From an uncultured Pseudomonadales bacterium (GTDB lineage Bacteria; Patescibacteriota; Microgenomatia; UBA1400; MFAQ01), in the NCBI GenBank assembly GCA_964357975.1, contig CAYHNG010000005.1:1031-65030 (forward strand): 64,000 nt of DNA, read 5' to 3'. A program made the position numbers and the translations under genes. Positions 9,476 to 53,861 of the stretch are shown piece by piece. Under the pieces are notes generated by a model. That model was not told where the DNA came from. It was given only the letters and a program-made list of their open reading frames with translations, and searched no databases. Positions within the stretch are counted from its first letter, which is position 1. Every line of letters begins with the position of its first letter.

Positions 9476-9503
9476 AAAATCCACCCGTGTGGGTGGATTT
9501 GTT
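9474..9503. terminator. bidirectional intrinsic terminator between xer gene and convergent membrane-protein gene
   Basis: A-run, then hairpin ATCCACCC-gtgt-GGGTGGAT, then T-run. Confidence 0.5.
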
Positions 9504-12230: not shown

Positions 12231-14858
12231 CTATTCCTCTTCAGATTCGGAGATGACGGTGACGGCGACGATGCTATCTCCTTCTTTAGCGAAGCGCATT
12301 AGAATAACACCCTGTGTGGCGCGTCCGAGTCTTGGAATGTTGCGTACCGGAAGTTTAATGGCCTGGCCCTGTGAAGTAGTAATAAGAACTACCTCCGAGT
12401 CTTGGTCGACCAATAGAGCTCCGGCAATTTTGCCTGTCTTATCGGCCGTTTCACTAACCTTTAACCCCTGTCCGGAACGATTCTGAACTGGATATTCCGG
12501 TAGTGGTGTTCGTTTGCCCATACCTTTTTCGGTAACTACCAAGAGATCACGGAAGAGCTTTACCCTTTTGTCGGAAGAAATGGGTTCGGTTTCGGCAAAT
12601 GATTCCATAGAGATAATGTAATCATCCCCTTTGAGGAGTATACCGCGGACTCCCATAGTGTCTCTGTCTGTAGGACGAACATCGCCTTCTTGGAAGCGAA
12701 TGGACTTTCCGTCGCGGCTAACCAGGAGAATGTGATCACTGCCGGATGTTTTGTTTACCCAGACCAAACTGTCTTGATCGGTCAGCTTAATAGCGATTAA
12801 GCCATTACTTTTGATATTTTCGTATTTACTGAGGACGGTTCGTTTGACAATACCTTTCTTGGTAGTGAAGAATAGACAGTCATTCTTATTGATCTGTGAT
12901 GAGAGGGGAAGAATCGACTGTATCGTTTCGTCGGTATCGATGTTGATCAAATTAATGATGGCCTGACCTTTACTAATGCGACTGCCTTCAGGTAGTTCCC
13001 AGACCTTAAGTGAAAATACTTTTCCCTTACTGGAGAAGACCAAGAGACGGTCGTGGGTGTTGGCGTTAGTTAGGAGGTGAATTTCGTCGGTATCTTTGAT
13101 GGTCATACCGGACACTCCTTTCCCTCCTCTTTTTTGGGTTTTGAAAGTGGCCAAAGGCATTCGTTTGATGTAACCGGACTTGGTAAGAGCCACAATAGTT
13201 TCTTCGGCGGGAATGAGATCCTCTTCCGAGAAGGTGCCGGGTGCATTGGACACGATCTTGGTTTTTCTTTTTTCCGGATAGTCTATAGCCAGTTTGGTGA
13301 TTTCATCCTTGATGATTTGAAGAACTTCTTTGGGATCTTTGAGAATGGAAACGAGTCGTTCGATCTGTTTCTTGAGTTCTTGGTACTCGGCCTCGATCTT
13401 TTGTCTTTCCAATGCGGCCAGTTTTCTGAGCTGCATGTCTAAGATAGCGATCGATTGAATTTCCGAAAGACCAAACTTGGACATGAGGTTTGTTTTGGCG
13501 GTTTCGCTATCGGGACTCTTTTTGATGGTTTCAATGACTTCATCAATGTTGCTAAGGGCAATAAGTAGTCCTTCCAAAATGTGGGCGCGGTCTTGGGCTG
13601 TTTTAAGTTCAAACTGACTGCGTCTGACGATTACTCCTTGTCGGTGAACGGTGTACTCCATTAAAATTTGTTTGAGGTTCAAGAGATGAGGAGTTCCGTC
13701 TGAAGTTAGAGCTACGACGTTGGCCGGAAAACTCGTCTGTAACTCAGTAAATTTATAGAGATTGTTTAAAACGCTTTTGGGCTTGGCGTCTTTTTTAAGA
13801 TCGACGGCGACGGTCATACCCTTGCGGTCAGATTCGTCCCTGAGGTCTGCAATGCCGTCCAGTCTTTTCTTTTTTACCAGTTCGGCGATGTTCGTGATGA
13901 GCTTGGCTTTGTTTACTTGATATGGTAGTTCGGTAATGAGAATTTGGAAACGCCCATTCTTCTTCTCGACAATTTCGGCGACTCCCCGAACAATAATACT
14001 GGCTTTACCGGTGGCATAAAGTTTTTTGATCTCGTTCGTATCATAAATAATTCCGGCTGTCGGGAAGTCCGGTCCCTTGATGTGTTGGCATAGATCATCA
14101 ATTTCTACAGAGGACTCAAGAGATCCAATTAAATCACGATATGGAGCCGAAACGAGCTGGTCGTCGGCATATTGCTTGGTGACTGTCGCGTTACTTCTAT
14201 CGATTAAAGCTTTGATGGCATCGACTACTTCCAGCAGGTTGTGCGGTGGAATCTTGGTAGCCATACCGACAGCGATACCGTCCGAACCCATAAGTAAGAG
14301 ATTGGGTAGCTTGGCCGGTAAAACAGTGGGCTCTTGCTGGGAACCGTCAAAGTTGTCAACTAAATCGACCGTTCTTTTGTCAATATCTTCAAGTGCTTCA
14401 CCGGCGATCTTACTCAAACGAGCTTCGGTATAACGCATGGCGGCAGCGGAGTCACCGTCAACGGATCCAAAATTACCCTGACCATCAATGAGTGGATAGC
14501 GCATGGAAAAGGTCTGAGCCAGACGGACCATGGTTTGATAAACCGCTTGATCGCCGTGAGGATGATATTTCCCTAAAACTTCTCCGACAATACGAGCAGA
14601 CTTTTTGTAAGCACTTTTGTGGGTAAGACCCATCTCTTTCATGGCGAAAAGAATGCGACGATGAACCGGCTTGAGACCATCGCGAACGTCGGGAAGGGCG
14701 CGGGCGACGATCACCGACATGGCATAGTCCAAATAGGACCGTTCCATTTCTTCAATGATCGGTGTGGTTCTAATTAGACCCCATTGTGTTTGTTCGTCCG
14801 GTACGGGGACGGAGGTGGTGGTTTCTTGTTCCGGGTCTAGGTTTTGATTTTCGTCCAT
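12231..14858 (-). CDS. gyrA: DNA gyrase subunit A
   Basis: [28 protein letters not shown] catalytic-Tyr region. C-terminal beta-pinwheel repeats. 875 aa. Confidence 0.95.
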
Positions 14859-18595: not shown

Positions 18596-18649
18596 CCAAT
18601 CTTGTTAACCTTCAAGGCCTGGCCTTGAAGGCGTGTATAATTGTGACAA

Positions 18650-19345
18650 ATGCCACAGAAAAATAGTCGTAAAGAATACGGAGCTGGTGGCTATTATCAT
18701 ATTTACAATCGTGGTGTTGAGAAACGAGATATTTTTCTAGACGAACAAGACTATAAAGTCTTTCTCGGATATATGAAGTTTTACCTAGAACCTCCCGACC
18801 TTCAAGGCCAGGCCTTGAAGGATCCAGAAGGCAAGGTTATTTCTCCTTCGAGAGAACCAAAGAACTATTCTTCTCAAATCGAGTTACTGTCTTATTGCTT
18901 GATGCCAAATCACTTTCATTTACTAATTAAACAATCTACCAATAGAGGCATAGCGGAATTTATGCAATCTTTGGTGCTTAAATACGTTTTGTACTTCAAC
19001 AAGAAATACAAAAGGGTTGGGGGTTTGTTTCAGGGAAGGTATAAAACTGTTTTGATTGAGACGGAGGAACAATTTGTTTACGTTTCAAAATATATTCATC
19101 GGAACCCGATCGATCTTTTAACTTCACCTTCAAGGCCTGGCCTTGAAGGTGTTGAAGGTATCTGTGAGTATAAATATTCGAGTTGTGGTAATTATGTAGG
19201 CTTGTTCAGTCAGAACTGGGTTAAGCCACAGGAAATAAGCTCTTACTTTAAGAAGATTAAGCGTAATTCTAGCTATAGATCTTTTGTTGAGGAAGCAAGT
19301 GGTTTAACAAAAGTGTACTTTGAGATGATAGATTTAGAACAATAA
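18650..19345 (+). CDS. IS200-like / REP-associated tyrosine (Y1 HUH) transposase
   Basis: Y1_Tnp hallmarks: YHIYNRG...IFLDEQDY, HUH motif MPNHFHLL, catalytic Tyr region RYK...YIHRNP. 231 aa. Confidence 0.8.
   Translation: MPQKNSRKEYGAGGYYHIYNRGVEKRDIFLDEQDYKVFLGYMKFYLEPPDLQGQALKDPEGKVISPSREPKNYSSQIELLSYCLMPNHFHLLIKQSTNRGIAEFMQSLVLKYVLYFNKKYKRVGGLFQGRYKTVLIETEEQFVYVSKYIHRNPIDLLTSPSRPGLEGVEGICEYKYSSCGNYVGLFSQNWVKPQEISSYFKKIKRNSSYRSFVEEASGLTKVYFEMIDLEQ
18799..18821. repeat. 23-bp perfect palindrome inside RAYT-1 CDS (encodes LQGQAL)
   Basis: CCTTCAAGGCCAGGCCTTGAAGG, in frame. Confidence 0.9.
19127..19149. repeat. 23-bp perfect palindrome inside RAYT-1 CDS (second internal copy)
   Basis: CCTTCAAGGCCTGGCCTTGAAGG, in frame (SRPGLEG). 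Confidence 0.9.
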
Positions 19346-19432
19346 TTTCTCTCTGCACGGTTTGCATTTCTTGAGATGGAGCCTGTCCTTCAAGGCCAGG
19401 CCTCGAAGGTGACTATATGAGAAGTGTCACCG

Positions 19433-44593: not shown

Positions 44594-44658
44594 CTATACC
44601 TTGTTCTAGTCTGATATCCTGCAGGGCCTGGCCCTGCAGGTGATTATAATGGTAATAT

Positions 44659-45339
44659 ATGCCACAGAAGAATAGTCGTAAAGAATACGGTGCCGGTGGT
44701 CACTATCACGTTTATAACCGTGGGGTAAACAAGAGTTCGATATTTTTAGACGAACAGGATTTTAAGGTTTTTCTTGGGTACTTAAAACTGTATCTTGAAC
44801 CACCTAACCTGCAGGGCCAGGCCCTGCAGGATGAGAATGGAAGAACAATCCCTCCTTCAAAGGAACCTAAGAACTATATGGGTGAGATTGAGTTATTGGC
44901 ATATTGTCTAATGCCTAACCATTTTCATTTGCTCATTAAACAAAATACCGATAGAGGTATTGCTGAGTTTATGCAGTCTTTAATTCAGAGATATGTGATG
45001 TATTTTAATAAAAAATATATGAGAGTGGGAGGACTTTTCCAAAGTAGGTATAAATCGGTTTTAATTGAGGATGAAAACCAATTTGTGTATATCACTAAAT
45101 ATATCCATCGAAATCCGATCGATATTTTACCTGCAAAACTTGGCACTGCAGGATATGAAGTTTATCGATATTCTTCGTATGGGAATTATCTCGGTTTGTT
45201 TCAACAGCGATGGGTTCGGCCGGAGCAGATTCTTTCATATTTTTCCAATATGAAAGAAGGAAGTACTTATCAAAGCTTTGTAGAGAATACGGTGTCAGAC
45301 GATTTAACTAAAGTATATTACGAGATGATGGATAATTGA
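44659..45339 (+). CDS. IS200-like / REP-associated tyrosine (Y1 HUH) transposase, paralog 2
   Basis: MPQKNSRKEYGAGGHYHVYNRG..., HUH MPNHFHLL, RYK...YIHRNP. 226 aa. Roughly three-quarters identical to the 18650 paralog, by eye. Confidence 0.8.
   Translation: MPQKNSRKEYGAGGHYHVYNRGVNKSSIFLDEQDFKVFLGYLKLYLEPPNLQGQALQDENGRTIPPSKEPKNYMGEIELLAYCLMPNHFHLLIKQNTDRGIAEFMQSLIQRYVMYFNKKYMRVGGLFQSRYKSVLIEDENQFVYITKYIHRNPIDILPAKLGTAGYEVYRYSSYGNYLGLFQQRWVRPEQILSYFSNMKEGSTYQSFVENTVSDDLTKVYYEMMDN
44808..44830. repeat. 23-bp perfect palindrome inside RAYT-2 CDS (encodes LQGQAL)
   Basis: CCTGCAGGGCCAGGCCCTGCAGG, in frame. Confidence 0.9.
45130..45152. repeat. degenerate internal palindrome in RAYT-2 CDS
   Basis: CCTGCAaaacttggcacTGCAGG keeps the 6-bp outer arms at the position homologous to the second internal palindrome of paralog 1. 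Confidence 0.6.
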
Positions 45340-45412
45340 ATGCTTGTTCTAGTTTGATATCCTGCAGGGCCAGGCCCTGCAGGATACTTGATGATGGGAT
45401 ATTAGAACAACT

Positions 45413-46108
45413 GTGATAGAATTGGATGATATGAAATCTATTGCCCTTTTTGATATTGATGAAACCATTTTTAGCCAGCAGTCGCTATTCCCTGTGATAA
45501 AGAAGATGGTAGATCTTGGTCTTTTACAAAGTAGTATCTTAACTGATATAGATATTGAATATAAAAAATATAAGAACCAATTGCAATCCTACTCTGAGGC
45601 TGGCAATAATATTCTTAATTTATTCTGCCTTTCGTTAGCTGGCAAAGAATATAGCTTGACCTATAAAGTCGTAAAGGATTTTTTTGTGGAGAACCAAGCC
45701 AATTTTTATCACTTTTTTCCTGAGATACTACCAAAGCTAAAGACCACCCATGAAGTATATTTGGTTACTGCAAACTCTCAGATGTTTGGTGAGGCGGTAA
45801 ATGAAATGTTTGGGCTGGATGGGTATTTGTCCACTAGTTTTGAAGTCGTAGATAAAAAATTTACGGGTAAAATTCTTAACTCGTTAGCTGACGGTAAACA
45901 TATTGTTGAAGAACTACTGTCTAATTATGAAGGCGCGACAATGGCTTTTGGTGATTCCGAGAACGATATTGGAATGCTGAAGAGGGTTTCAATTCCAATT
46001 TGTGTTAATCCGACACCAAAACTACTGATTCACGCCAAAGAGAAAAACTGGACAGTAGTAAGTGACCAAAATGCTTACGAAAAGATTCTTGACTTACTTG
46101 AACCATAA
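45413..46108 (+). CDS. HAD-IB family hydrolase (phosphoserine-phosphatase-like)
   Basis: Motif I ALFDIDETIF (DxDxT). Motif IV GDSENDIGML. Cap domain between them. 231 aa. Confidence 0.7.
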   Translation: MIELDDMKSIALFDIDETIFSQQSLFPVIKKMVDLGLLQSSILTDIDIEYKKYKNQLQSYSEAGNNILNLFCLSLAGKEYSLTYKVVKDFFVENQANFYHFFPEILPKLKTTHEVYLVTANSQMFGEAVNEMFGLDGYLSTSFEVVDKKFTGKILNSLADGKHIVEELLSNYEGATMAFGDSENDIGMLKRVSIPICVNPTPKLLIHAKEKNWTVVSDQNAYEKILDLLEP

Positions 46109-46182: not shown

Positions 46183-48198
46183 TTAGACCTTGAAGCGTTT
46201 ATAGATGATGTCTTTGAGAATGTTTATTGCCGATTGTTCCAGGTTTTTTTCGTCGCAACCGAAAGATATTCTAAAAGTATGTTTATTGTTAAAACTATTC
46301 AGAAAATCAACTTGTTTAACTAATGTTGAAGAGTCTTTAATAATATCCATGATGTCGCCAAGTAATTTATCCGATTCGACGGTGATGTCTTCCAGCATCA
46401 GAGGGTAATCTGATATTGGTTGATATGAGTACTGAGGATTAATTAAGGCAGAAAGTAAAACAAGATTTATTTCCAAGACAGTGGGATTAGTCTGCAAGCC
46501 GATAGATCTAAGTATGGATGGTTTGATTAATCCAAGATGCCCCAATAAATGCTTGCCGGAGTAAATGCCTGCGGTATTTACCGGGTTGAAAAAGGCCGGA
46601 GGGTTGAGAGATGGTTTAAAGGAGATGGAGGTGGTTTTTAATTTGCGGAAAAGAGCTTCAACCTGACCTTTGGTTTGACGGTAATCTTGACCGGAGATTA
46701 ACGCCAGCCGGGAAACCTCCAGGGGTAGTTCCTGACCCTTTATTTTTTGGTAGACGATGGCAATTTCCAAAGTGTTAATTGGCGTGTTAGCCTTGCCTTG
46801 ATTATGTTTGTGGTTCTCAAGACCCGAAGGTATTAGGCTGGTTCTTAAATATTCATAATCTTGAGAGAGAGTGTTGCGGAGTTTTAGATGATTTTCCGGT
46901 ACCAACTCGGTCTTCTTTAGTAAATCATGGGAGATGAGTGAGTTATTGTAAATTTCGTGATAGCCGATGGCGGAGAGGTACTTTTTTATTTCGGTTTCTG
47001 TTTTGAGTAAAGGGCTTGTTGGCTCTACCGGCAAATTAACGCAGGGTAATGATGGGGGGAGCCGGAAGTAGCCGTAAATACGAGCAACTTCTTCGGCCAG
47101 ATCTTCTTTGAGATTGACATCGTGGTAGCGCCAACTGGGGACTGAACAGACCAACCGGTTGGCTTGGATCTTTCCTCCAAATCCGAGACTCGCCAAAATA
47201 GAAATGACGGTTTCTTTGTTGATGGCCACTCCGACGAAAGTGTTTAACCAATTAAAGTCTAAAGAGATAAGTTTGGGCGGACGGATCGCGGGATAATAAT
47301 CAAAAAGTGTGGATGAGACAATGCCCCCGGCTCTTTGTTGAAGTAAACGAATAGCTTGAGCCATAACCGGTAGGCAGAGTTCCGGGTCGGGCTGTTTTTC
47401 ATATAGTTGAGCCGCCAGAGTTCTTTTCTGAAGCCGAAGAGAAGTTTGACGGATCTTTTTCGGATTGTAGACGGGTACAATAAGAAGGATGTTCTTGGTA
47501 TGCTCGTCGACTTCGGCCACTTGGCCTCCCATGACTCCACAGAGGTCTACTAATCTGCTTGCACCATCTTCGATAACAATGTCACCGTCCAGAAGTGGAT
47601 GAACTTGATTATCTAAGGTAACAATGCTCTCTCCTTGATGGCTTTCCCGAACGGTCAGACTCTGAGTGGCCAATTTATCGCGGTCAAAGATATGGCTGGG
47701 CATGCCGTAGAGCAAGGTCAGTTCGTTGGTAATATCGATACAATTATTTAAGGCACGAAGGCCACTGTTTTCCAGAAACACTTGGGTCTCATGGCCGGAA
47801 GGTTTGATGGAGATATTTTCTAGAGCTATGGCAGTGAAGCGAATAACCAAATCTTCCTTAATGTCTAAGTGGAACTGTTTTGATAAATTCTTGGGAAAAC
47901 TGTAGGGTTCCTGGTAGGGATCATTGATGAATTTAGAGGGTATGTTGAACTGAGAGAGTATGATGGCCGCTTCTCTGGCTACACCCATGGCGCTCGCCGT
48001 ATCGACCCTGTTGGTAATGGCTTCGATTTCGTAAATATAGTCTCCGCCGATTTTTTTTAGACGATCAAAAGTGGGACCGCACAAACTAATGTTTTGACTG
48101 AGTTCTTCTGCGGTAGCAGATGTCTCAAGGAATTTTCTGAGGGAAGAGTCTGTAATAACAATATCCATTTTAAAATTGTTTGAGAAATCTAATATCAT
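46183..48198 (-). CDS. pheT: phenylalanine--tRNA ligase beta subunit (short form)
   Basis: B3/B4 domain (IYEIEAITNRVDTASAMGVARE), B5, catalytic-like core. 671 aa, so the N-terminal tRNA-binding domain is likely absent. Overlaps pheS. Confidence 0.88.
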   Translation of the reverse strand: MILDFSNNFKMDIVITDSSLRKFLETSATAEELSQNISLCGPTFDRLKKIGGDYIYEIEAITNRVDTASAMGVAREAAIILSQFNIPSKFINDPYQEPYSFPKNLSKQFHLDIKEDLVIRFTAIALENISIKPSGHETQVFLENSGLRALNNCIDITNELTLLYGMPSHIFDRDKLATQSLTVRESHQGESIVTLDNQVHPLLDGDIVIEDGASRLVDLCGVMGGQVAEVDEHTKNILLIVPVYNPKKIRQTSLRLQKRTLAAQLYEKQPDPELCLPVMAQAIRLLQQRAGGIVSSTLFDYYPAIRPPKLISLDFNWLNTFVGVAINKETVISILASLGFGGKIQANRLVCSVPSWRYHDVNLKEDLAEEVARIYGYFRLPPSLPCVNLPVEPTSPLLKTETEIKKYLSAIGYHEIYNNSLISHDLLKKTELVPENHLKLRNTLSQDYEYLRTSLIPSGLENHKHNQGKANTPINTLEIAIVYQKIKGQELPLEVSRLALISGQDYRQTKGQVEALFRKLKTTSISFKPSLNPPAFFNPVNTAGIYSGKHLLGHLGLIKPSILRSIGLQTNPTVLEINLVLLSALINPQYSYQPISDYPLMLEDITVESDKLLGDIMDIIKDSSTLVKQVDFLNSFNNKHTFRISFGCDEKNLEQSAINILKDIIYKRFKV

Positions 48199-49210
48199 CG
48201 CTGTAAATCAACCTGAGGTCAGGTAACTTGGACTTCATCATTAAGACACGTTCTACCCCCCAGCCAAAGGCAAAACCGGAACACTCATCAGGGTTTAACC
48301 CGCCATTGCGCAGGACGTTTGGATGAACCATGCCTGCTCCTCCGAGTTCTAGCCAGCCGGATTTGCAGACTTTGCAGGGAGAAAGGTTGATCAACCCGGT
48401 TCCCTGACAAACTTCACAGGTAATGTCGATTTCGAACGATGGTTCAGTGAATTGGAAATGGTGGGGGCGCAGTCTGGTGCGACGGTCTTGACCGAAATAT
48501 GATTTGGCAAAATACTCGGTGACTCCCAAGAGATGAGTAATGTTGACATTTTTATCAACCACCAACCCTTCGAACTGATGGAACATGGGGGTGTGGGTAG
48601 CATCAATTTGGCGTCGATAAGTTTTACCGATATTTATCATCTTGATGGGAGGTGCTTTCATAAACTCCATTTCCCTCAGTTGGCCATTGCTGGTATGAGC
48701 AGTGAGAACCGTGTTGTCTCCCACATAGAAAGTCTCTTGATCGTCCCTTGCGGGGTGGTCTTTGGGAATATTGAGACCTTCGGCGTAATACCAGTCCGAT
48801 TCAACTTCCGGATAGCGACGGCGAACAAAACCCAGTCGAAGAAAAATGTTTTCGATTTCTTCAATAGCTTGGGTAATAAGGTGCAGACTACCTTCGGGGG
48901 TTTCATTACCGGGAATCGTGACGTCAAAAGACGATTTTTCGGCCCGGCTTAGGGTTTCAAGGAGTTTGGCCGCCAATTCTTTTTGGATATAATCCTTGAG
49001 CTCGTTGATGGATTTACCGATACCCGGATCTGTTTTAACGGGTAAGGTTTTGAAAAGTAAGTTTATTTGACCTTGTTTACCAAGATATTTGGTATTGAGA
49101 GTGTCCACATCACCGGATGACCCGGATTTGCTCAGATCCTTGACGAAATTATGTTTAAGTAGGTCTATCTCGTTTGATTTTGTCCCCATCGACTTTAATG
49201 ATAACATCAT
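48170..49210 (-). CDS. pheS: phenylalanine--tRNA ligase alpha subunit
   Basis: Class II aaRS motifs (FTEPSFEID, GWLELGGAGMVHP, GFAFGWGVERV). 346 aa. Confidence 0.92.
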   Translation of the reverse strand: MMLSLKSMGTKSNEIDLLKHNFVKDLSKSGSSGDVDTLNTKYLGKQGQINLLFKTLPVKTDPGIGKSINELKDYIQKELAAKLLETLSRAEKSSFDVTIPGNETPEGSLHLITQAIEEIENIFLRLGFVRRRYPEVESDWYYAEGLNIPKDHPARDDQETFYVGDNTVLTAHTSNGQLREMEFMKAPPIKMINIGKTYRRQIDATHTPMFHQFEGLVVDKNVNITHLLGVTEYFAKSYFGQDRRTRLRPHHFQFTEPSFEIDITCEVCQGTGLINLSPCKVCKSGWLELGGAGMVHPNVLRNGGLNPDECSGFAFGWGVERVLMMKSKLPDLRLIYSDDIRFLKQF

Positions 49211-49225: not shown

Positions 49226-49256
49226 TGAAAAAACTCCCCTGAACGGGGAGTTTTTA
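49226..49256 (-). terminator. intrinsic terminator downstream of rplT (bidirectional form)
   Basis: AAAAA, then ACTCCCC-tgaac-GGGGAGT, then TTTTT. Confidence 0.55.
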
Positions 49257-50470: not shown

Positions 50471-50499
50471 AGAAAAAAAAGACGCCATGTAATGGCGTC
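50471..50499 (-). terminator. intrinsic terminator of the small Cys-protein gene
   Basis: Minus strand GACGCCAT-tac-ATGGCGTC followed by TTTTTTTT. Confidence 0.6.
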
Positions 50500-50506
50500 T
50501 GCGAGA

Positions 50507-51097: not shown

Positions 51098-51171
51098 TGG
51101 GCCCGACTGGACTCGAACCAGTGACCTCTGCAATGTCAATGCAGCGCTCTAGCCAGCTGAGCTACGAGCCC
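51098..51171 (-). tRNA. tRNA-Val (anticodon GAC)
   Basis: Hand fold gives acceptor GGGCTCG/CGGGCCC, D arm GCTC/GAGC, anticodon stem CTGCA/TGCAG with loop TTGACAT, T arm ACTGG-TTCGAGT-CCAGT, discriminator A. No CCA encoded. Confidence 0.85.
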
Positions 51172-51180
51172 GAAATTTTA

Positions 51181-51250
51181 TTATTTGATGAGCGCTTCTA
51201 GCCTCAGCCGTAGGCTGATCCGCCTTTGGAGGAAGCTGAGCTACGAGCCC
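51181..51250 (-). pseudogene. tRNA-Val 5'-fragment (acceptor + D arm) with about 28-nt insertion
   Basis: Minus strand GGGCTCGTAGCTCAGCT[tcctccaaaggcggatcagcctac]GGCTGAGGCTAGAAGCGCT. The first 16-17 nt are identical to tRNA-Val positions 1-17. No anticodon or T arm follows. Confidence 0.45.
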
Positions 51251-51306
51251 ATGCGCCTGCGGCGCTATTTTAGGCCTTCGGCATAAAATACATATGTATT
51301 TTATCA

Positions 51307-51858
51307 TCAGCCAACAGATGTGGCTACGGCGCGTTCATTGGCTTGAGTGTAGGAATTGCCTTTGGACTTGGCCATGCTCCAGTAAACACCTTTTTTGGCG
51401 GATCGACCATTGTACATTTCCAGCCAACTATTGGCGTCCTGAACCTTAAGACTAAAAATTTGGATCATTTTCTGGATGTGGGTTAGGAAACTTTCGTGAT
51501 AGACTCCCGCTTCGGAAACCGGAGACTCCACCGCTTTAAGAAGGTTGGCATCGAGGGTTTTTACCTGTTTGGCTAAATTCCTCAGCTGCTCTCTAATCTC
51601 GTCAATTCGCCTTTCAGTTTGTTTTTCTTTTGAAGAGTAGACCTTACTCCATTCTTGCTTTCTGGCTTGGGAAAAGGCTTCGGCACGTCGTTTCTCGCTC
51701 TCTTTCTTTTGCTGGAACTCGGCAAAGGGGTTGGTTTTTGATTCTTGATTACCGTTTTCGAACGTTCTGGCTTGAGAATTACGAAGAGCCTCCAAAAAAC
51801 TCTGAATCTTGGAGTTTCCCTGACTTTGGTTTGATGAGCTGCCCGTATTACTGTTCAT
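51307..51858 (-). CDS. hypothetical protein (low-complexity N-terminus, coiled-coil)
   Basis: 183-aa ORF with S/N/Q-rich N-terminus and a charged helical middle. No family recognised. Confidence 0.45.
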   Translation of the reverse strand: MNSNTGSSSNQSQGNSKIQSFLEALRNSQARTFENGNQESKTNPFAEFQQKKESEKRRAEAFSQARKQEWSKVYSSKEKQTERRIDEIREQLRNLAKQVKTLDANLLKAVESPVSEAGVYHESFLTHIQKMIQIFSLKVQDANSWLEMYNGRSAKKGVYWSMAKSKGNSYTQANERAVATSVG

Positions 51859-51875
51859 AACGTGGCCCTATAATA

Positions 51876-52652
51876 TCAGATGCCCATTAAATAATCAATG
51901 GTTTTGCGCCGATTCATGATGGACCGGAGCTGATCCATTTGTTTTGATGAAACATTGGACACCATGGCTAATTCTAACAGTTCCTTGTCTTCGGTGTCTA
52001 TTTTTTGGTCTTTGGCAATTTCCAGTAGCAGGAGATCAAGGCGGACGGATTTTTCGGCACTATCCGAGTACTCTTTCTTTACCTGCTCAAGGTTTTTTCC
52101 GAGAGCCTTGAGATAGTCTTCGAGCGGGAGGTTGAGGGATTTGGACTGGGAAGCTAACCGTTCCAAACTATGATTAACTTCTTCGTTGATGACCAACTCC
52201 GAAACATCCACTTTTTCATGGTCCAGGAGAGCTTGGTAAACATCTTCGACCTTCCGGTCTTTTTTGTCTTTGGTTTTGAGATATTTGGTATAGTCGCCAA
52301 GCTTAATTTCCGGATAGAGCGGCAGTTGGAGTTTGATTTTCCAACTACCGTCTTTTTCGGCTTTAAGTTCTTCCAAGACAGGCCGCCCCAAAAGCCGGTA
52401 GTGGTTTTCTTCGATGGTATGTTCGAGGAGGTGACTCATGACGTGGTTAAGAATGTGATCGCTCAACTTGTCCGGGTCAAGATTTTTTTCGGCGACAGCT
52501 TTGGGGGCCTTGCCCTGACGAAAGCCCTTGACGGTGACGGTTTTGATCATTTCGTCGACTACGTGGTTTTTTTCGATATCGACTTCTTCGTGAGAAACCG
52601 TGGCTTCCAGATAGGCAGTCCCCTTTTCAATTTTGATTTGTTTGGTGTTCAT
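51876..52652 (-). CDS. tig: trigger factor (N-terminal and C-terminal domains only, no PPIase domain)
   Basis: Ribosome-binding signature VKGFRQGKAPKAVAEK (GFRxGxxP). 258 aa, so the FKBP/PPIase middle domain is missing. Confidence 0.7.
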   Translation of the reverse strand: MNTKQIKIEKGTAYLEATVSHEEVDIEKNHVVDEMIKTVTVKGFRQGKAPKAVAEKNLDPDKLSDHILNHVMSHLLEHTIEENHYRLLGRPVLEELKAEKDGSWKIKLQLPLYPEIKLGDYTKYLKTKDKKDRKVEDVYQALLDHEKVDVSELVINEEVNHSLERLASQSKSLNLPLEDYLKALGKNLEQVKKEYSDSAEKSVRLDLLLLEIAKDQKIDTEDKELLELAMVSNVSSKQMDQLRSIMNRRKTIDYLMGI

Positions 52653-52704
52653 AGCGTCTTATTTTAACCCATCAAGAGCTGGCGGTGGTAAAATGATTAG
52701 ACTT

Positions 52705-52785
52705 GCCGAGGTGGCGAAATGGTAGACGCACTAGCTTTAGGAGCTAGCGGGGCAACCCATGGAGGTTCAAGTCCTCTCCTCGGCA
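52705..52785 (+). tRNA. tRNA-Leu (anticodon TAG)
   Basis: Acceptor GCCGAGG/CCTCGGC, 3-bp D stem, anticodon loop TTTAGGA, long variable arm, T arm GGAGG-TTCAAGT-CCTCT. Confidence 0.85.
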
Positions 52786-52790
52786 CCGAA

Positions 52791-53420
52791 TTACTCCAGA
52801 TGGTCGAAGAACTGTGAGACGCCGTTGGCCCAAGAACCATCTGAAGGAGGGGTATAGGTCTTCATGACTTCCAGTGGGTCTTTACTGTGTTTACCTTTGA
52901 GAAAGATTTTGGTGAATTGGGGTGCAATTCTTCGAAGAGCATCCTCGTAGTTATCGAAACGGGTGACCTTGAGAACTGCCGGGTTTGATGGTTCCGGATA
53001 TATCCCCCACCCCCAGCAGTTATACGAATTTTCTGGGATCCTTTTACAGAGATTTGATTCTTGCTGGGCAATAGCTACTAGCCAGCGGTAATCAAACTGA
53101 TACTGATCCGAAAGAGACACAATGAGATTTGAGTACTGCTCTAGAGGTGAGCCGAATTTGTGGAGATATTGACGAATGATCTCCGGTCGGGCGTCGGCGG
53201 TGATAATTGAAGTCTTTATTTGCTCGTCAAAGGCCGGTAACGCGGAGAAGATAAATGGTTCTTCCGGGTTGGGAATGGTTTCGGAGTTAAGATTGTCTGT
53301 TGTAACGCCTAAAATAAGTTTTGACTCATTTGTGTTTTGAATCAGAGTGGTGTTGATACCAAAGGCAATACGTGAAGTGATTACAAAAAGTGCCAGCAGA
53401 TACAAAAACTTTTTCGCCAT
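52791..53420 (-). CDS. secreted peptidoglycan hydrolase-like protein (glucosaminidase/FlgJ-like motif)
   Basis: Signal peptide. WLVAIAQQESNLC...NCWGWGIY resembles the AQAALESGWG...N(L)FG glucosaminidase motif. 209 aa. Tentative. Confidence 0.4.
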   Translation of the reverse strand: MAKKFLYLLALFVITSRIAFGINTTLIQNTNESKLILGVTTDNLNSETIPNPEEPFIFSALPAFDEQIKTSIITADARPEIIRQYLHKFGSPLEQYSNLIVSLSDQYQFDYRWLVAIAQQESNLCKRIPENSYNCWGWGIYPEPSNPAVLKVTRFDNYEDALRRIAPQFTKIFLKGKHSKDPLEVMKTYTPPSDGSWANGVSQFFDHLE

Positions 53421-53465
53421 AAGCTAATTTACTGTGGCAGAAATAAGCGACGATGTCAAGAAAAG

Positions 53466-53486
53466 GTGCACCAAGAGGGAGTCGAA
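53466..53486 (-). repeat. 21-nt duplicate of the tRNA-Arg 3' end
   Basis: GTGCACCAAGAGGGAGTCGAA at 53466-53486 is identical to 53609-53629 (T-loop through discriminator of tRNA-Arg). Confidence 0.8.
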
Positions 53487-53571
53487 GTCTTCGGTAACAT
53501 CTGCTGATGTTCCTCAGACCGCGCCTCAGCGCCGGTCGCGCTTCCGGCAGGTTCTCCTCCCGCGAGTTTAC

Positions 53572-53599
53572 AAACAAAAATCTCCCGACAAGCGAGAGA
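53572..53599 (-). terminator. intrinsic terminator after tRNA-Arg; same hairpin as at 46136
   Basis: Minus strand ATCTCTCGCTTGTCGGGAGA followed by TTTTTG. Confidence 0.5.
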
Positions 53600-53609
53600 T
53601 TTTGGTTTG

Positions 53610-53683
53610 TGCACCAAGAGGGAGTCGAACCCCCAACCGACAGCTTCGAAGGCTGGCGCTCTATCCAGTTGAGCTATTGGTGC
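53610..53683 (-). tRNA. tRNA-Arg (anticodon TCG)
   Basis: Acceptor GCACCAA/TTGGTGC, D arm GCTC/GAGC, anticodon loop CTTCGAA (U33, A37), T arm GGGGG-TTCGACT-CCCTC. Confidence 0.8.
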
Positions 53684-53711
53684 ATGGGTGTATTTTAGAC
53701 TAATTCGGAGC

Positions 53712-53747
53712 GATTGTTATAGATCCCCGCCTACGCGAGGATGACAA
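53712..53747 (-). promoter_or_regulatory. conserved GC-rich promoter-associated motif upstream of tRNA-Arg (copy 2)
   Basis: Minus strand TTGTCATCCTCGCGTAGGCGGGGATCTATAACAATC, about 85% identical to the infC-upstream copy. Confidence 0.4.
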
Positions 53748-53787
53748 TAGAGATAACGCGAGAAAATGGGGTAAAATATGTAGGTTC

Positions 53788-53861
53788 GGGTCAGTAGCTC
53801 AGTTGGTTAGAGCACCTGCCTCTTAAGTAGGGTGTCGCGGGTTCGAGTCCCGCCTGACCCA
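53788..53861 (+). tRNA. tRNA-Lys (anticodon CTT)
   Basis: Acceptor GGGTCAG/CTGACCC, D arm GCTC/GAGC, anticodon loop CTCTTAA, T arm GCGGG-TTCGAGT-CCCGC. CC encoded after the discriminator. Confidence 0.8.

Follow-up and report, generated by a model that had tools for sequence, protein, structure and literature searches.

The stretch examined here, called the window below, comprises 64,000 nucleotides of contig CAYHNG010000005.1 (positions 1,031 to 65,030; assembly GCA_964357975.1), deposited as an uncultured Pseudomonadales bacterium and placed by GTDB in the Patescibacteriota, that is, the Candidate Phyla Radiation (CPR). It carries two genes for Y1 HUH transposases, both on the + strand, as are the hairpin sites listed for them: paralog 1 (18650–19345, 231 aa) and paralog 2 (44659–45339, 226 aa), the latter resembling the REP-associated tyrosine transposases (RAYTs) which accompany repetitive extragenic palindromes (REPs). 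The products share 70% identity (73% for the DNA), and these two gene copies are all that the 64 kb contain. Paralog 2 is bracketed by direct repeats of 41 bp. We consider it probable that these repeats represent the outer pair among the cognate hairpins of a REP/RAYT-type module (REPtron), the host being a groundwater bacterium of the CPR.

Hairpins at the two transposase genes

BLAST comparison of the paralog 2 region with the window aligned 44600–44640 with 45343–45383 as a direct repeat of 41 bp at 95% identity (2 mismatches) and a spacing of 743 bp. The sequence-only reading of this DNA had described a 40-bp pair, which stands with one extra base on its 5' side; the duplication stops at exactly 41 bp, so that the longer segmental duplication which that reading named as its own refutation is not present. 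Its inventory of repeats was incomplete, since two further copies of the palindrome, one perfect and one decayed, sit within the open reading frame (ORF), and paralog 1, as described below, has a co-varying hairpin of its own. The repeat unit consists of a tail of 17–18 nt followed by a 23-nt palindrome, P2 CCTGCAGGGCCWGGCCCTGCAGG. In letters, the 18-nt tail is CTTGTTCTAGT(C/T)TGATAT and P2 is CCTGCAGGGCC(T/A)GGCCCTGCAGG, the C/T mismatch lying in the tail and the T/A mismatch at the exact centre of the palindrome, where the swap yields the reverse complement of the palindrome. In 100 dinucleotide shuffles of the window there was no match to the 23-nt palindrome or to the 28-nt pattern of tail plus arm.

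Four sites belong to paralog 2. The upstream unit (44600–44640) is made up of the 18-nt tail CTTGTTCTAGTCTGATAT and P2 at 44618–44640 with T at its centre; as single-stranded DNA (ssDNA) it folds at -12.9 kcal/mol (z = -3.9), and its position is kept in the orthologous loci L081 and L082. Internal hairpin 1 (44808–44830) is a perfect P2 with A at its centre, lies within the coding sequence (CDS) in frame 2, encodes (N)LQGQALQ(D) and folds at -13.4 kcal/mol (z = -5.5); the same site also bears a hairpin in paralog 1 and in many homologs. Internal hairpin 2 (45130–45152) is a decayed P2 CCTGCAAAACTTGGCACTGCAGG with 5 changes, read in frame 1 as PAKLGTAG and folding at -5.1 kcal/mol (z = -1.6), while in L081 and L082 it is intact and encodes PAGPGPAG. 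The downstream unit (45343–45383), again an 18-nt tail (CTTGTTCTAGTTTGATAT) plus P2 (45361–45383, centre A), begins 4 nt past the stop codon and is kept in both orthologs, as is ATACTTGATGATGG in its 3' flank (45384–45410). This flank ends in an inverted copy of the tail, TAGAACAA at 45403–45410, which pairs with 45344–45351 and so provides a 'double-foot' outer stem around the downstream hairpin; 45338–45412 folds at -17.4 kcal/mol (z = -5.8).

Different reading frames are used for the two internal copies. Site 1 is read C|CTG CAG GGC CWG GCC CTG CAG|G, giving LQG(Q/L)ALQ, and site 2 CCT GCA GGG CCW GGC CCT GCA GG, giving PAGPGPAG; the corresponding peptides from the paralog 1 palindrome are LQG(Q/L)ALK and PSRPGLEG. 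The central base of P2 (44629, 44819 and 45372 in the window, with the same sites in L081 and L082) changes between T and A only and flips independently at each of the four sites among orthologs, which looks like the flip/flop inversion that intrastrand template switching would give. At internal site 1 the flip switches Q and L in the protein.

Paralog 1 displays the same four-site layout with another palindrome, P1 CCTTCAAGGCCWGGCCTTGAAGG. Its upstream hairpin lies at 18609–18631 CCTTCAAGGCCTGGCCTTGAAGG, the internal ones at 18799–18821 (LQGQALK) and 19127–19149 (PSRPGLEG), and the downstream one, with 1 mismatch, at 19387–19409. P1 and P2 are distinguished by two stem positions, where both arms have changed in a compensatory way (T-A to G-C in each case). 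Apart from the decayed copy, all sites of the two genes (seven of eight) depart from P1 or P2 by no more than one mismatch, and of just 12 perfect hairpins with a stem of at least 9 bp in the window six belong to these genes. An ortholog of paralog 1, L206, has the same holB-like neighbour and four perfect hairpins out of four. In the alignment of paralog 1 with L206, a pair chosen by protein similarity, the hairpin columns are identical throughout (58/58), whereas the remainder of the CDS is at 80.0% (p = 2e-6). The hairpin is thus preserved as a nucleotide sequence, more strictly than the protein would demand.

Other palindromes in the window deserve mention. The longest stem of paralog 2 (12 bp) belongs to an unrelated palindrome, TTCTTTCATATTTTTCCAATATGAAAGAA, at 45230–45258 within the CDS, which is not palindromic in L081. 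At 12358–12370, ATGGCCTGGCCCT presents the P2 core with one mismatch and poorly palindromic arms, and could be due to chance or be a decayed solo copy. Further perfect hairpins with stems of 9–11 bp at 9477–9500, 49229–49255 and 50480–50500 (e.g. AAAAACTCCCCTGAACGGGGAGTTTTT) are unrelated to P1 or P2 and look like ordinary terminators.

A -10-like hexamer, TATAAT, lies at 44645–44650, 4 nt 3' of the upstream hairpin and 8 nt 5' of the ATG, and spacing of hairpin, hexamer and ATG is identical in paralog 1 (hexamer at 18636–18641). The two paralogs also share their first 14 codons (MPQKNSRKEYGAGG), so that the similarity between them described from the letters is confirmed, though the ribosome-binding site suggested along with it is not. 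Among 48 homologous loci with an upstream hairpin, 31 have a -10-like hexamer between hairpin and ATG, ending 5–9 nt before the ATG in 22 of the 31, while Shine-Dalgarno-like motifs occur in just 4 of the 48. This position of the hexamer suggests a leaderless mRNA. Neither a sigma-70 -35/-10 pair nor an intrinsic (T-run) terminator was found at the hairpins; there is no -35 hexamer, its space in paralog 2 being taken up by the upstream hairpin. From the arrangement of these motifs the paralog transcripts are likely to be leaderless, with the hairpin filling the -35 space.

The encoded proteins and their homologous loci

The product of paralog 2 is a class-2 Y1 HUH enzyme. It possesses the Pfam motif Y1_Tnp [PF01797; 5.4e-11, 43 bits against a cutoff of 23], the HUH pair H88/H90 (NHFH) and the catalytic Tyr148 (YIHRNP). 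Across 44 aligned homologs neither NHFH nor YIHRNP varies, Y148, N152 and P153 being invariant or nearly so. A Y---NP motif characterizes class-2 TnpA_Y1 proteins, the RAYT side of the family, as Y---Q does those of the IS200 type (PMC6006769); the YIHRNP of the window protein is of the former kind. Low copy number and low identity between copies, a further trait of class 2, are likewise seen here, with two copies in the 64-kb window. The motif set (NHFH / FQ / YIHRNP / YSSY) and length resemble those of subclass 2.1 of PMC6006769, a likeness of motif and length only. The ratio of nonsynonymous to synonymous substitution (dN/dS) for the gene is 0.08–0.15.

An AlphaFold (AF2) model built from the alignment reached a mean predicted local distance difference test (pLDDT) score of 80.8. 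Its best Foldseek match was the E. coli REP-associated tyrosine transposase in complex with a REP hairpin [4er8_A, 3.6e-7], the transposases of IS200, IS608 and ISDra2 following at 2e-4 or worse; the fold matches chains of 4er8, 2xm3 and 2vjv. A PDB search by sequence alone returned just weak ISDra2 matches (E = 0.0025); it took the structure model to bring out the RAYT relationship. Model confidence is lowest where the internal hairpins are translated: residues 50–58 (hairpin 1) lie in the loop between helix 32–46 and strand 77–84, and residues 157–164 (hairpin 2) in a low-confidence loop directly after the helix with Tyr148.

A protein search returned 7,899 relatives, all of them from CPR/Patescibacteria where named. 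Many genome records with a gene of this CPR type go under the title “uncultured Gammaproteobacteria,” “Pseudomonadales,” “Bathyarchaeia” or “Nanoarchaeia” (L005, L007, L015, L020, L021, L023, L045, L064 and others); these titles look like automatic mis-assignments of CPR bins. A genome scan found about 600 loci; 80 of them were fetched, and with both window genes and two orthologs added the set amounts to 84 loci. Requiring a perfect hairpin with a stem of at least 8 bp adjoining the gene, we found a flank hairpin in 60 of the 84, and in 41 of these 60 the identical hairpin occurs on the opposite flank. Cognate hairpins on both sides of the gene, the arrangement that defines a REPtron, are present in the window at both paralogs. 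In 24 of the 60 the flank hairpin recurs within the gene's own CDS, solely at nt 135–205 and nt 424–489 from the ATG; as a control, hairpins were matched to foreign CDSs, with 19 hits in 4,974 pairs.

Hairpin sequences vary by locus, and also among paralogs that share a genome (L032/L050/L052, L009/L011, L016/L017), with a tip of the type ..AAGG-loop-CCTT.. frequently in common. The peptides encoded at the internal sites vary together across 120 homologs: K at site 1 is accompanied by (T/S)..E at site 2 in 62 of 64 cases, and Q by A..A in 25 of 30. The two variable stem pairs occur in each of their four possible combinations as matched sets, P1 to P4. No match to P1 itself was seen among 205 fetched loci; the metagenome scan described below covered P2 only. 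When whole CDSs were shuffled among synonymous codons, just ~18–25 of the 84 loci showed significant hairpins; the low number is explained by the more distant homologs, of the Saccharibacteria type, in which hairpins are confined to the flanks. It follows that internal copies characterize the Microgenomates-type subfamily and not every homolog. A count of base pairs on 15 hairpins revealed compensatory changes in 7 of 10 pairs, a figure of little weight as the sequences were preselected as palindromes; the case is carried by the comparisons within loci, namely the recurrence of flank hairpins, the co-varying peptides and the alignment of paralog 1 with L206.

Two features of the flanks were noticed in passing. 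At L050, L052, L055, L023, L047, L026 and L057 some flank elements are doublets of two inverted hairpins with an outer stem of 16–18 bp, and are REPIN-like. In several homologous loci TAGC stands just 5' of the hairpin, which is reminiscent of the GTAG tag.

Solo copies and the PBP1A–pheT slot

Scanning metagenome contigs for exact P2 yielded at least 120 stretches with at least 49 gene-associated copies, typically spaced ~200, 310 and 230 bp apart, and at least 114 solo copies. As only exact P2 is detected in this way, the perfection of the solo copies is ascertained by the scan and we do not use it as evidence. Several solo copies share a contig with a P2-type gene, and contigs of related genomes with a gene plus solo copies of its own hairpin include L084/L098, L086/L135, L142 and L125/L194. 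Other genomes hold solo copies of their own hairpin types, for instance five within 10 kb in L072.

After removal of duplicates 53 solo copies were assessed, among the matches listed. Thirty-four lie in ORFs of at least 150 aa, 14 in frames of 80–149 aa, and 5 are apparently intergenic. The 34 are read as LQG(Q/L)ALQ in 22 cases, as PAGPGPAG in 10 and in the third frame in 2. Host genes confirmed by homology include pheS, argS and a comM-like gene. Homologs of the host genes are without the segment or show gaps of 5–10 residues there, the pheS of the window (48185–49177) being an unoccupied homolog, and the net change in length at the solo sites is variable.

At one and the same position of the alignment, an argS-like gene holds P2 in L105 and a hairpin of the L008 type in L008, which raised the possibility of an ancient shared insertion updated in concert. 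This was rejected as the closest ArgRS relatives of L105 (75–80% identical) are without it and the site is a hypervariable linker; on this comparison of sequences we read the two insertions as probably independent recent gains.

The tail behaves differently from the palindrome. It is common to the upstream and downstream copies only in the ortholog group of the window gene (window, L081, L082, L100, L109, L126 and L190), is absent from the solo P2 copies, and is not found at other P2 loci (proteins 68–76% identical), which have unrelated flanks. The tail is therefore a lineage-specific part of the outer copies and no guide of general occurrence; an IS608-type guide or cleavage function for it would be hypothetical. 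A supposed empty site with a single 40-mer, L149, was discarded, since only 10 nt of the tail match in an unrelated intergenic region, and the 40-mer had no match in viral contigs.

Orthologs of paralog 2 with 88–91% protein identity occupy the same slot between PBP1A and pheT in four lineages and seven contigs; in the window the neighbours are PBP1A, a HAD gene and pheT. That orthologs of each paralog keep to the site of that paralog argues against recent transposition. From the upstream tail to ~14–24 nt past the downstream hairpin, the unit is 83–94% identical among three lineages (window, L081 and L082), internal hairpin 2 of the window excepted, as against 70–76% for the flanking genes. 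By segment, identity among the three is 70–76% in the last 2 kb of PBP1A, 89–94% in the upstream tail and hairpin, 83–93% in the CDS outside the hairpins, 91–96% in internal hairpin 1 and 91–93% in the downstream tail and hairpin, falling to 50–60% in the next 60 nt. Internal hairpin 2 is 96% identical between L081 and L082 and 74–78% identical to the decayed copy of the window. The left border of this tract is not sharp, the last 100 nt of PBP1A also being fairly conserved. The proportion of synonymous differences (pS) is 0.31–0.33 for the RAYT gene (synonymous divergence, dS, ~0.4) and 0.76–0.84, that is, saturated, for PBP1A and pheT.

L100 (Ga0075779_112, reverse strand, ~1999–2604) holds a truncated ortholog. 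The gene remnant is 97% identical to L082 compared with 77% for the flanks, and a precise deletion of 189 bp has fused the upstream tail and hairpin to the sequence after internal hairpin 1, taking out the promoter and the first 50 codons. Given the contrast in pS and this hairpin-to-hairpin deletion, the unit behaves as an exchangeable cassette with hairpins as crossover points. The sequences compared indicate that exchange or conversion of the hairpin-bounded unit took place among related lineages whose flanks had already diverged, strongly so for the paralog 2 group only. All these sequences are metagenome assemblies, in which repeats can mislead assemblers, but the three lineages represent different samples and ~10% divergence separates their cassettes. 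The cassette-like unit suspected from the sequence thus holds good as regards identity and pS; its tail is no general guide, and the arrangement is the known layout of a REPtron.

The slot 3' of the downstream hairpin varies by lineage. In the window it is occupied by the gene for a HAD-family hydrolase [45413–46108, +; Pfam HAD, 2.9e-13], in L100 (3615–4232) by an unrelated GNAT-like ORF of 205 aa flanked by a direct repeat of ~22 bp, CTTGATGATGAGATYTTRGAA, and in L081 and L082 by nothing. The inserts of the window and L100 have a terminator-like piece, ..GCGAGAGATTYTATTT..., in common. Elsewhere in the window a cluster of four tRNAs at 51098–53861 constitutes the sole Rfam matches.

Interpretation and relation to known systems

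Among the closest known systems is the E. coli REPtron of TnpA_REP (RAYT, YafM; PDB 4ER8; Nunvar 2010, Ton-Hoang 2012, Messing 2012), whose Y1 HUH protein is the best structural match. There too the cognate hairpins on either side of the gene have further copies in the genome, paralogs are each paired with a separate family of hairpins, and the gene is present in low copy number and for the most part inherited vertically. The CPR hairpin differs in being a perfect 23-nt palindrome without a GTAG foot, while the REP of E. coli is imperfect; its copies are few and mostly within genes rather than between them, two of them lie within the CDS of the enzyme itself, and the host genome is of ~1 Mb. 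In TnpA_Y1 subclass 2.4 (Quentin, Siguier, Chandler, Fichant 2018, PMC6006769) REPs likewise occur in frame in the tnpA_REP gene as well as in its flanks, and the “double-foot” REPs described there, with a 5' tag and its reverse complement, compare with the tail and inverted tail at 45344–45351 and 45403–45410. Unlike those of subclass 2.4, the internal sites of the CPR genes are N-terminal to the HuH and just C-terminal to the Y, that is, outside the HuH-Y interval, and are fixed and co-varying family-wide; the motifs NHFH / FQ / YIHRNP / YSSY are closer to 2.1, and the taxa of 2.4 are Cyanobacteria and Bacteroidetes.

Subclass 2.1, or TIRYT (Di Nocera 2013; Quentin 2018), has comparable motifs (NH[YF]H, FQ, Y[IV]H-NP), a serine-containing tail and a length of ~238 aa against 226 aa, and is likened to the CPR proteins on these grounds. 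Its members are without REP-like hairpins, have a C-terminal helix-turn-helix-like domain, and in some cases have terminal inverted repeats, whereas the CPR genes have clear cognate hairpins. Intragenic REPs and the Rickettsia palindromic elements (RPEs; Ogata 2000; Di Nocera 2013, PMC3733652) are also palindromic repeats in frame in housekeeping genes, including those for aminoacyl-tRNA synthetases and repair, where they are tolerated in loops. Compared with both of these, the CPR unit is much shorter (~8 codons), a perfect palindrome read in two of three frames, and tied to an identifiable Y1 enzyme which bears the same insert.

Transposases flanked by cognate REPs, paralog-specific REP families, in-frame REPs in tnpA_REP (subclass 2.4) and intragenic REPs or RPEs have thus been described (PMC6006769, PMC3733652); no link between RAYTs and CPR was found in the literature searched. 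Points of difference from these descriptions are the CPR host clade, which is new, a perfect untagged 23-nt palindrome, dispersed copies which are mostly intragenic, fixed internal sites outside HuH-Y which are read in two frames and co-vary with each other and with the flanks, and evidence for lateral exchange of a hairpin-bounded gene at a fixed slot.

The organization of the locus might be explained in other ways. It is very unlikely that we are dealing with an autonomous element of the IS200/IS605 type, moving by peel-and-paste with the tail-plus-hairpin units as its ends and with the guide and cleavage geometry of IS608. The Y1 HUH fold would agree with such an element, as would a cassette younger than its flanks; furthermore, the tract of raised identity runs from near the upstream tail to ~14–24 nt 3' of the downstream hairpin, much as IS608 is cut 5' of the hairpin at its left end (LE) and 3' of it at its right end (RE). 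IS200, IS608 and ISDra2 do share the catalytic fold, the subterminal hairpins and a unit reaching beyond both hairpins, but are characterized by transposases of 130–150 aa with Y---Q, distinct LE and RE, many near-identical copies and often tnpB. The doubt about a standard IS200/IS605 element expressed in the sequence-only reading was well founded: the protein is of 226 aa with the Y---NP of class 2, not the Y---Q of the subclass 1.1 IS200 transposases, there is no tnpB among the neighbours, both ends are identical, and only two copies with 70% aa identity exist in 64 kb, so that the window unit does not qualify for membership of this family. The occupation of one PBP1A–pheT site in several lineages, the dispersal of the hairpin and not of the gene, and the better structural match to RAYT than to IS608 also speak against it. 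A mainly cis-regulatory role is unlikely as the whole explanation. On this view the upstream hairpin would be an operator or insulator, the internal ones attenuators or sites of autoregulation on mRNA or ssDNA, and the downstream one a terminator or stabilizer; the upstream hairpin does stand in the place of the -35, directly 5' of the -10, in many loci, the downstream copy follows right after the stop codon with a longer stem in the window (-17.4 kcal/mol), and the positions are conserved family-wide. Regulation alone leaves unexplained why paralog-specific hairpins are shared with dispersed copies. In addition, solo copies of the same palindrome occur within unrelated genes, there is no T-run terminator, the gene in the window keeps an intact ORF with one of its internal copies decayed, and the upstream copy is probably untranscribed if the mRNA is leaderless. 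A regulatory role could nevertheless coexist with a REPtron.

We regard as quite improbable the idea that the palindromes are passive recombinogenic repeats, shaped by quasipalindrome correction, slippage and homologous exchange, with the Y1 protein a frequent neighbour or host and nothing else. The precise deletion between two copies in L100, the variable net change in length at solo sites, and the T/A flips of the palindrome centre at every site among orthologs, as intrastrand template switching predicts, would all be in keeping with it. It does not account for a hairpin identity which follows the individual paralog even within one genome, nor for the same four positions at the gene across a phylum-level radiation, and the closest solved relative was crystallized on exactly such a hairpin. 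Chance, or membership of the 41-bp repeat in a larger segmental duplication, has practically no probability and is already refuted by the shuffles, the exact length of the duplicated stretch and its retention in orthologs from other samples. The insertion sequence, regulatory and passive-repeat explanations each account for some of the observations, but none explains why hairpins match individual paralogs and at the same time are dispersed without the gene.

Several observations weigh against a REPtron or depart from a canonical REP. The two paralogs score 45.1 and 39.9 bits with the NCBIfam model of the E. coli RayT equivalog (NF047646 REP_Tyr_transpos) and so remain below its cutoff of 80. 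At the foot of the hairpin there is no 5' GT[AG]G, the tag of a canonical REP, the tails in the window having CTAG, and the solo copies are mostly not extragenic as those of a canonical REP should be (34 of 53 in ORFs of at least 150 aa). Around the solo P2 copies (at least 114) no base is conserved, and the mobile unit is essentially the palindrome itself. Beyond the eight gene sites no dispersed P1 or P2 copies occur in the 64-kb window, and elsewhere the density of solo copies looks low, a few per 50–250 kb. Internal hairpin 2 has decayed in paralog 2 itself, so that at least this copy is dispensable. The contrast between gene and flanks is weak for paralog 1 (pS 0.64 versus 0.73–0.82), and uniformity of the copies could arise from ordinary gene conversion without the enzyme.

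If the REPtron interpretation is accepted, the following scheme may be put forward. By homology with E. coli TnpA_REP and the TnpA of IS608, the paralog 2 protein would bind the hairpin on ssDNA and cut and rejoin beside it, and as judged by E. coli RAYT and IS608 the enzyme would be responsible for copying and homogenizing the hairpins. Each paralog has its own hairpin, P2 for 44659–45339 and P1 for 18650–19345, with four sites per gene: 5' of the -10, two in surface loops of the CDS in two frames, and 3' of the stop. The 23-nt palindrome would be a small non-autonomous element reliant on the enzyme, its dispersal being observed and its reliance presumed. Recopying by the enzyme, or gene conversion, may keep copies within a locus perfect and alike as the remainder of the gene diverges, and the copies may also serve as crossover points for exchange of the unit between lineages and for the deletion between two copies in L100. 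The tail probably arose when one outer copy was duplicated with its 5' flank.

A wider proposal is tentative and, taken as a whole, less likely than not to be right. According to it the RAYT-like enzyme and the perfect 23-nt palindrome would form a self-maintaining pair in CPR bacteria, with master copies at four fixed sites of the gene and the gene itself swapped between species as a cassette at a fixed slot. The enzyme would write segments of 8 codons (LQGQALQ or PAGPGPAG) into loops of essential proteins, and switches of the stem (P1, P2, P3, P4) would spread in concert.

For annotation, CPR genes of this family should not be counted as IS200 insertion sequences. The cassette, with a dS of ~0.4 within synonymously saturated flanks, is a marker of recent DNA exchange between uncultivated lineages. 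The simple hairpin and the clean paralog variants, four stems which are one or two compensatory pairs apart, make the specificity of enzyme for hairpin testable with oligonucleotides. Most copies lie within genes because coding density is high in CPR genomes, and the intragenic copies constitute a natural catalogue of loops in essential proteins which tolerate an insert of 8 residues. The REP/RAYT association is usually regarded as a trait of larger genomes, chiefly those of Proteobacteria, Cyanobacteria and Bacteroidetes, and non-IS TnpA_Y1 genes were reported to be enriched in genomes above 5 Mb (PMC6006769); here a large conserved family is present in the ultra-small genomes of the CPR.

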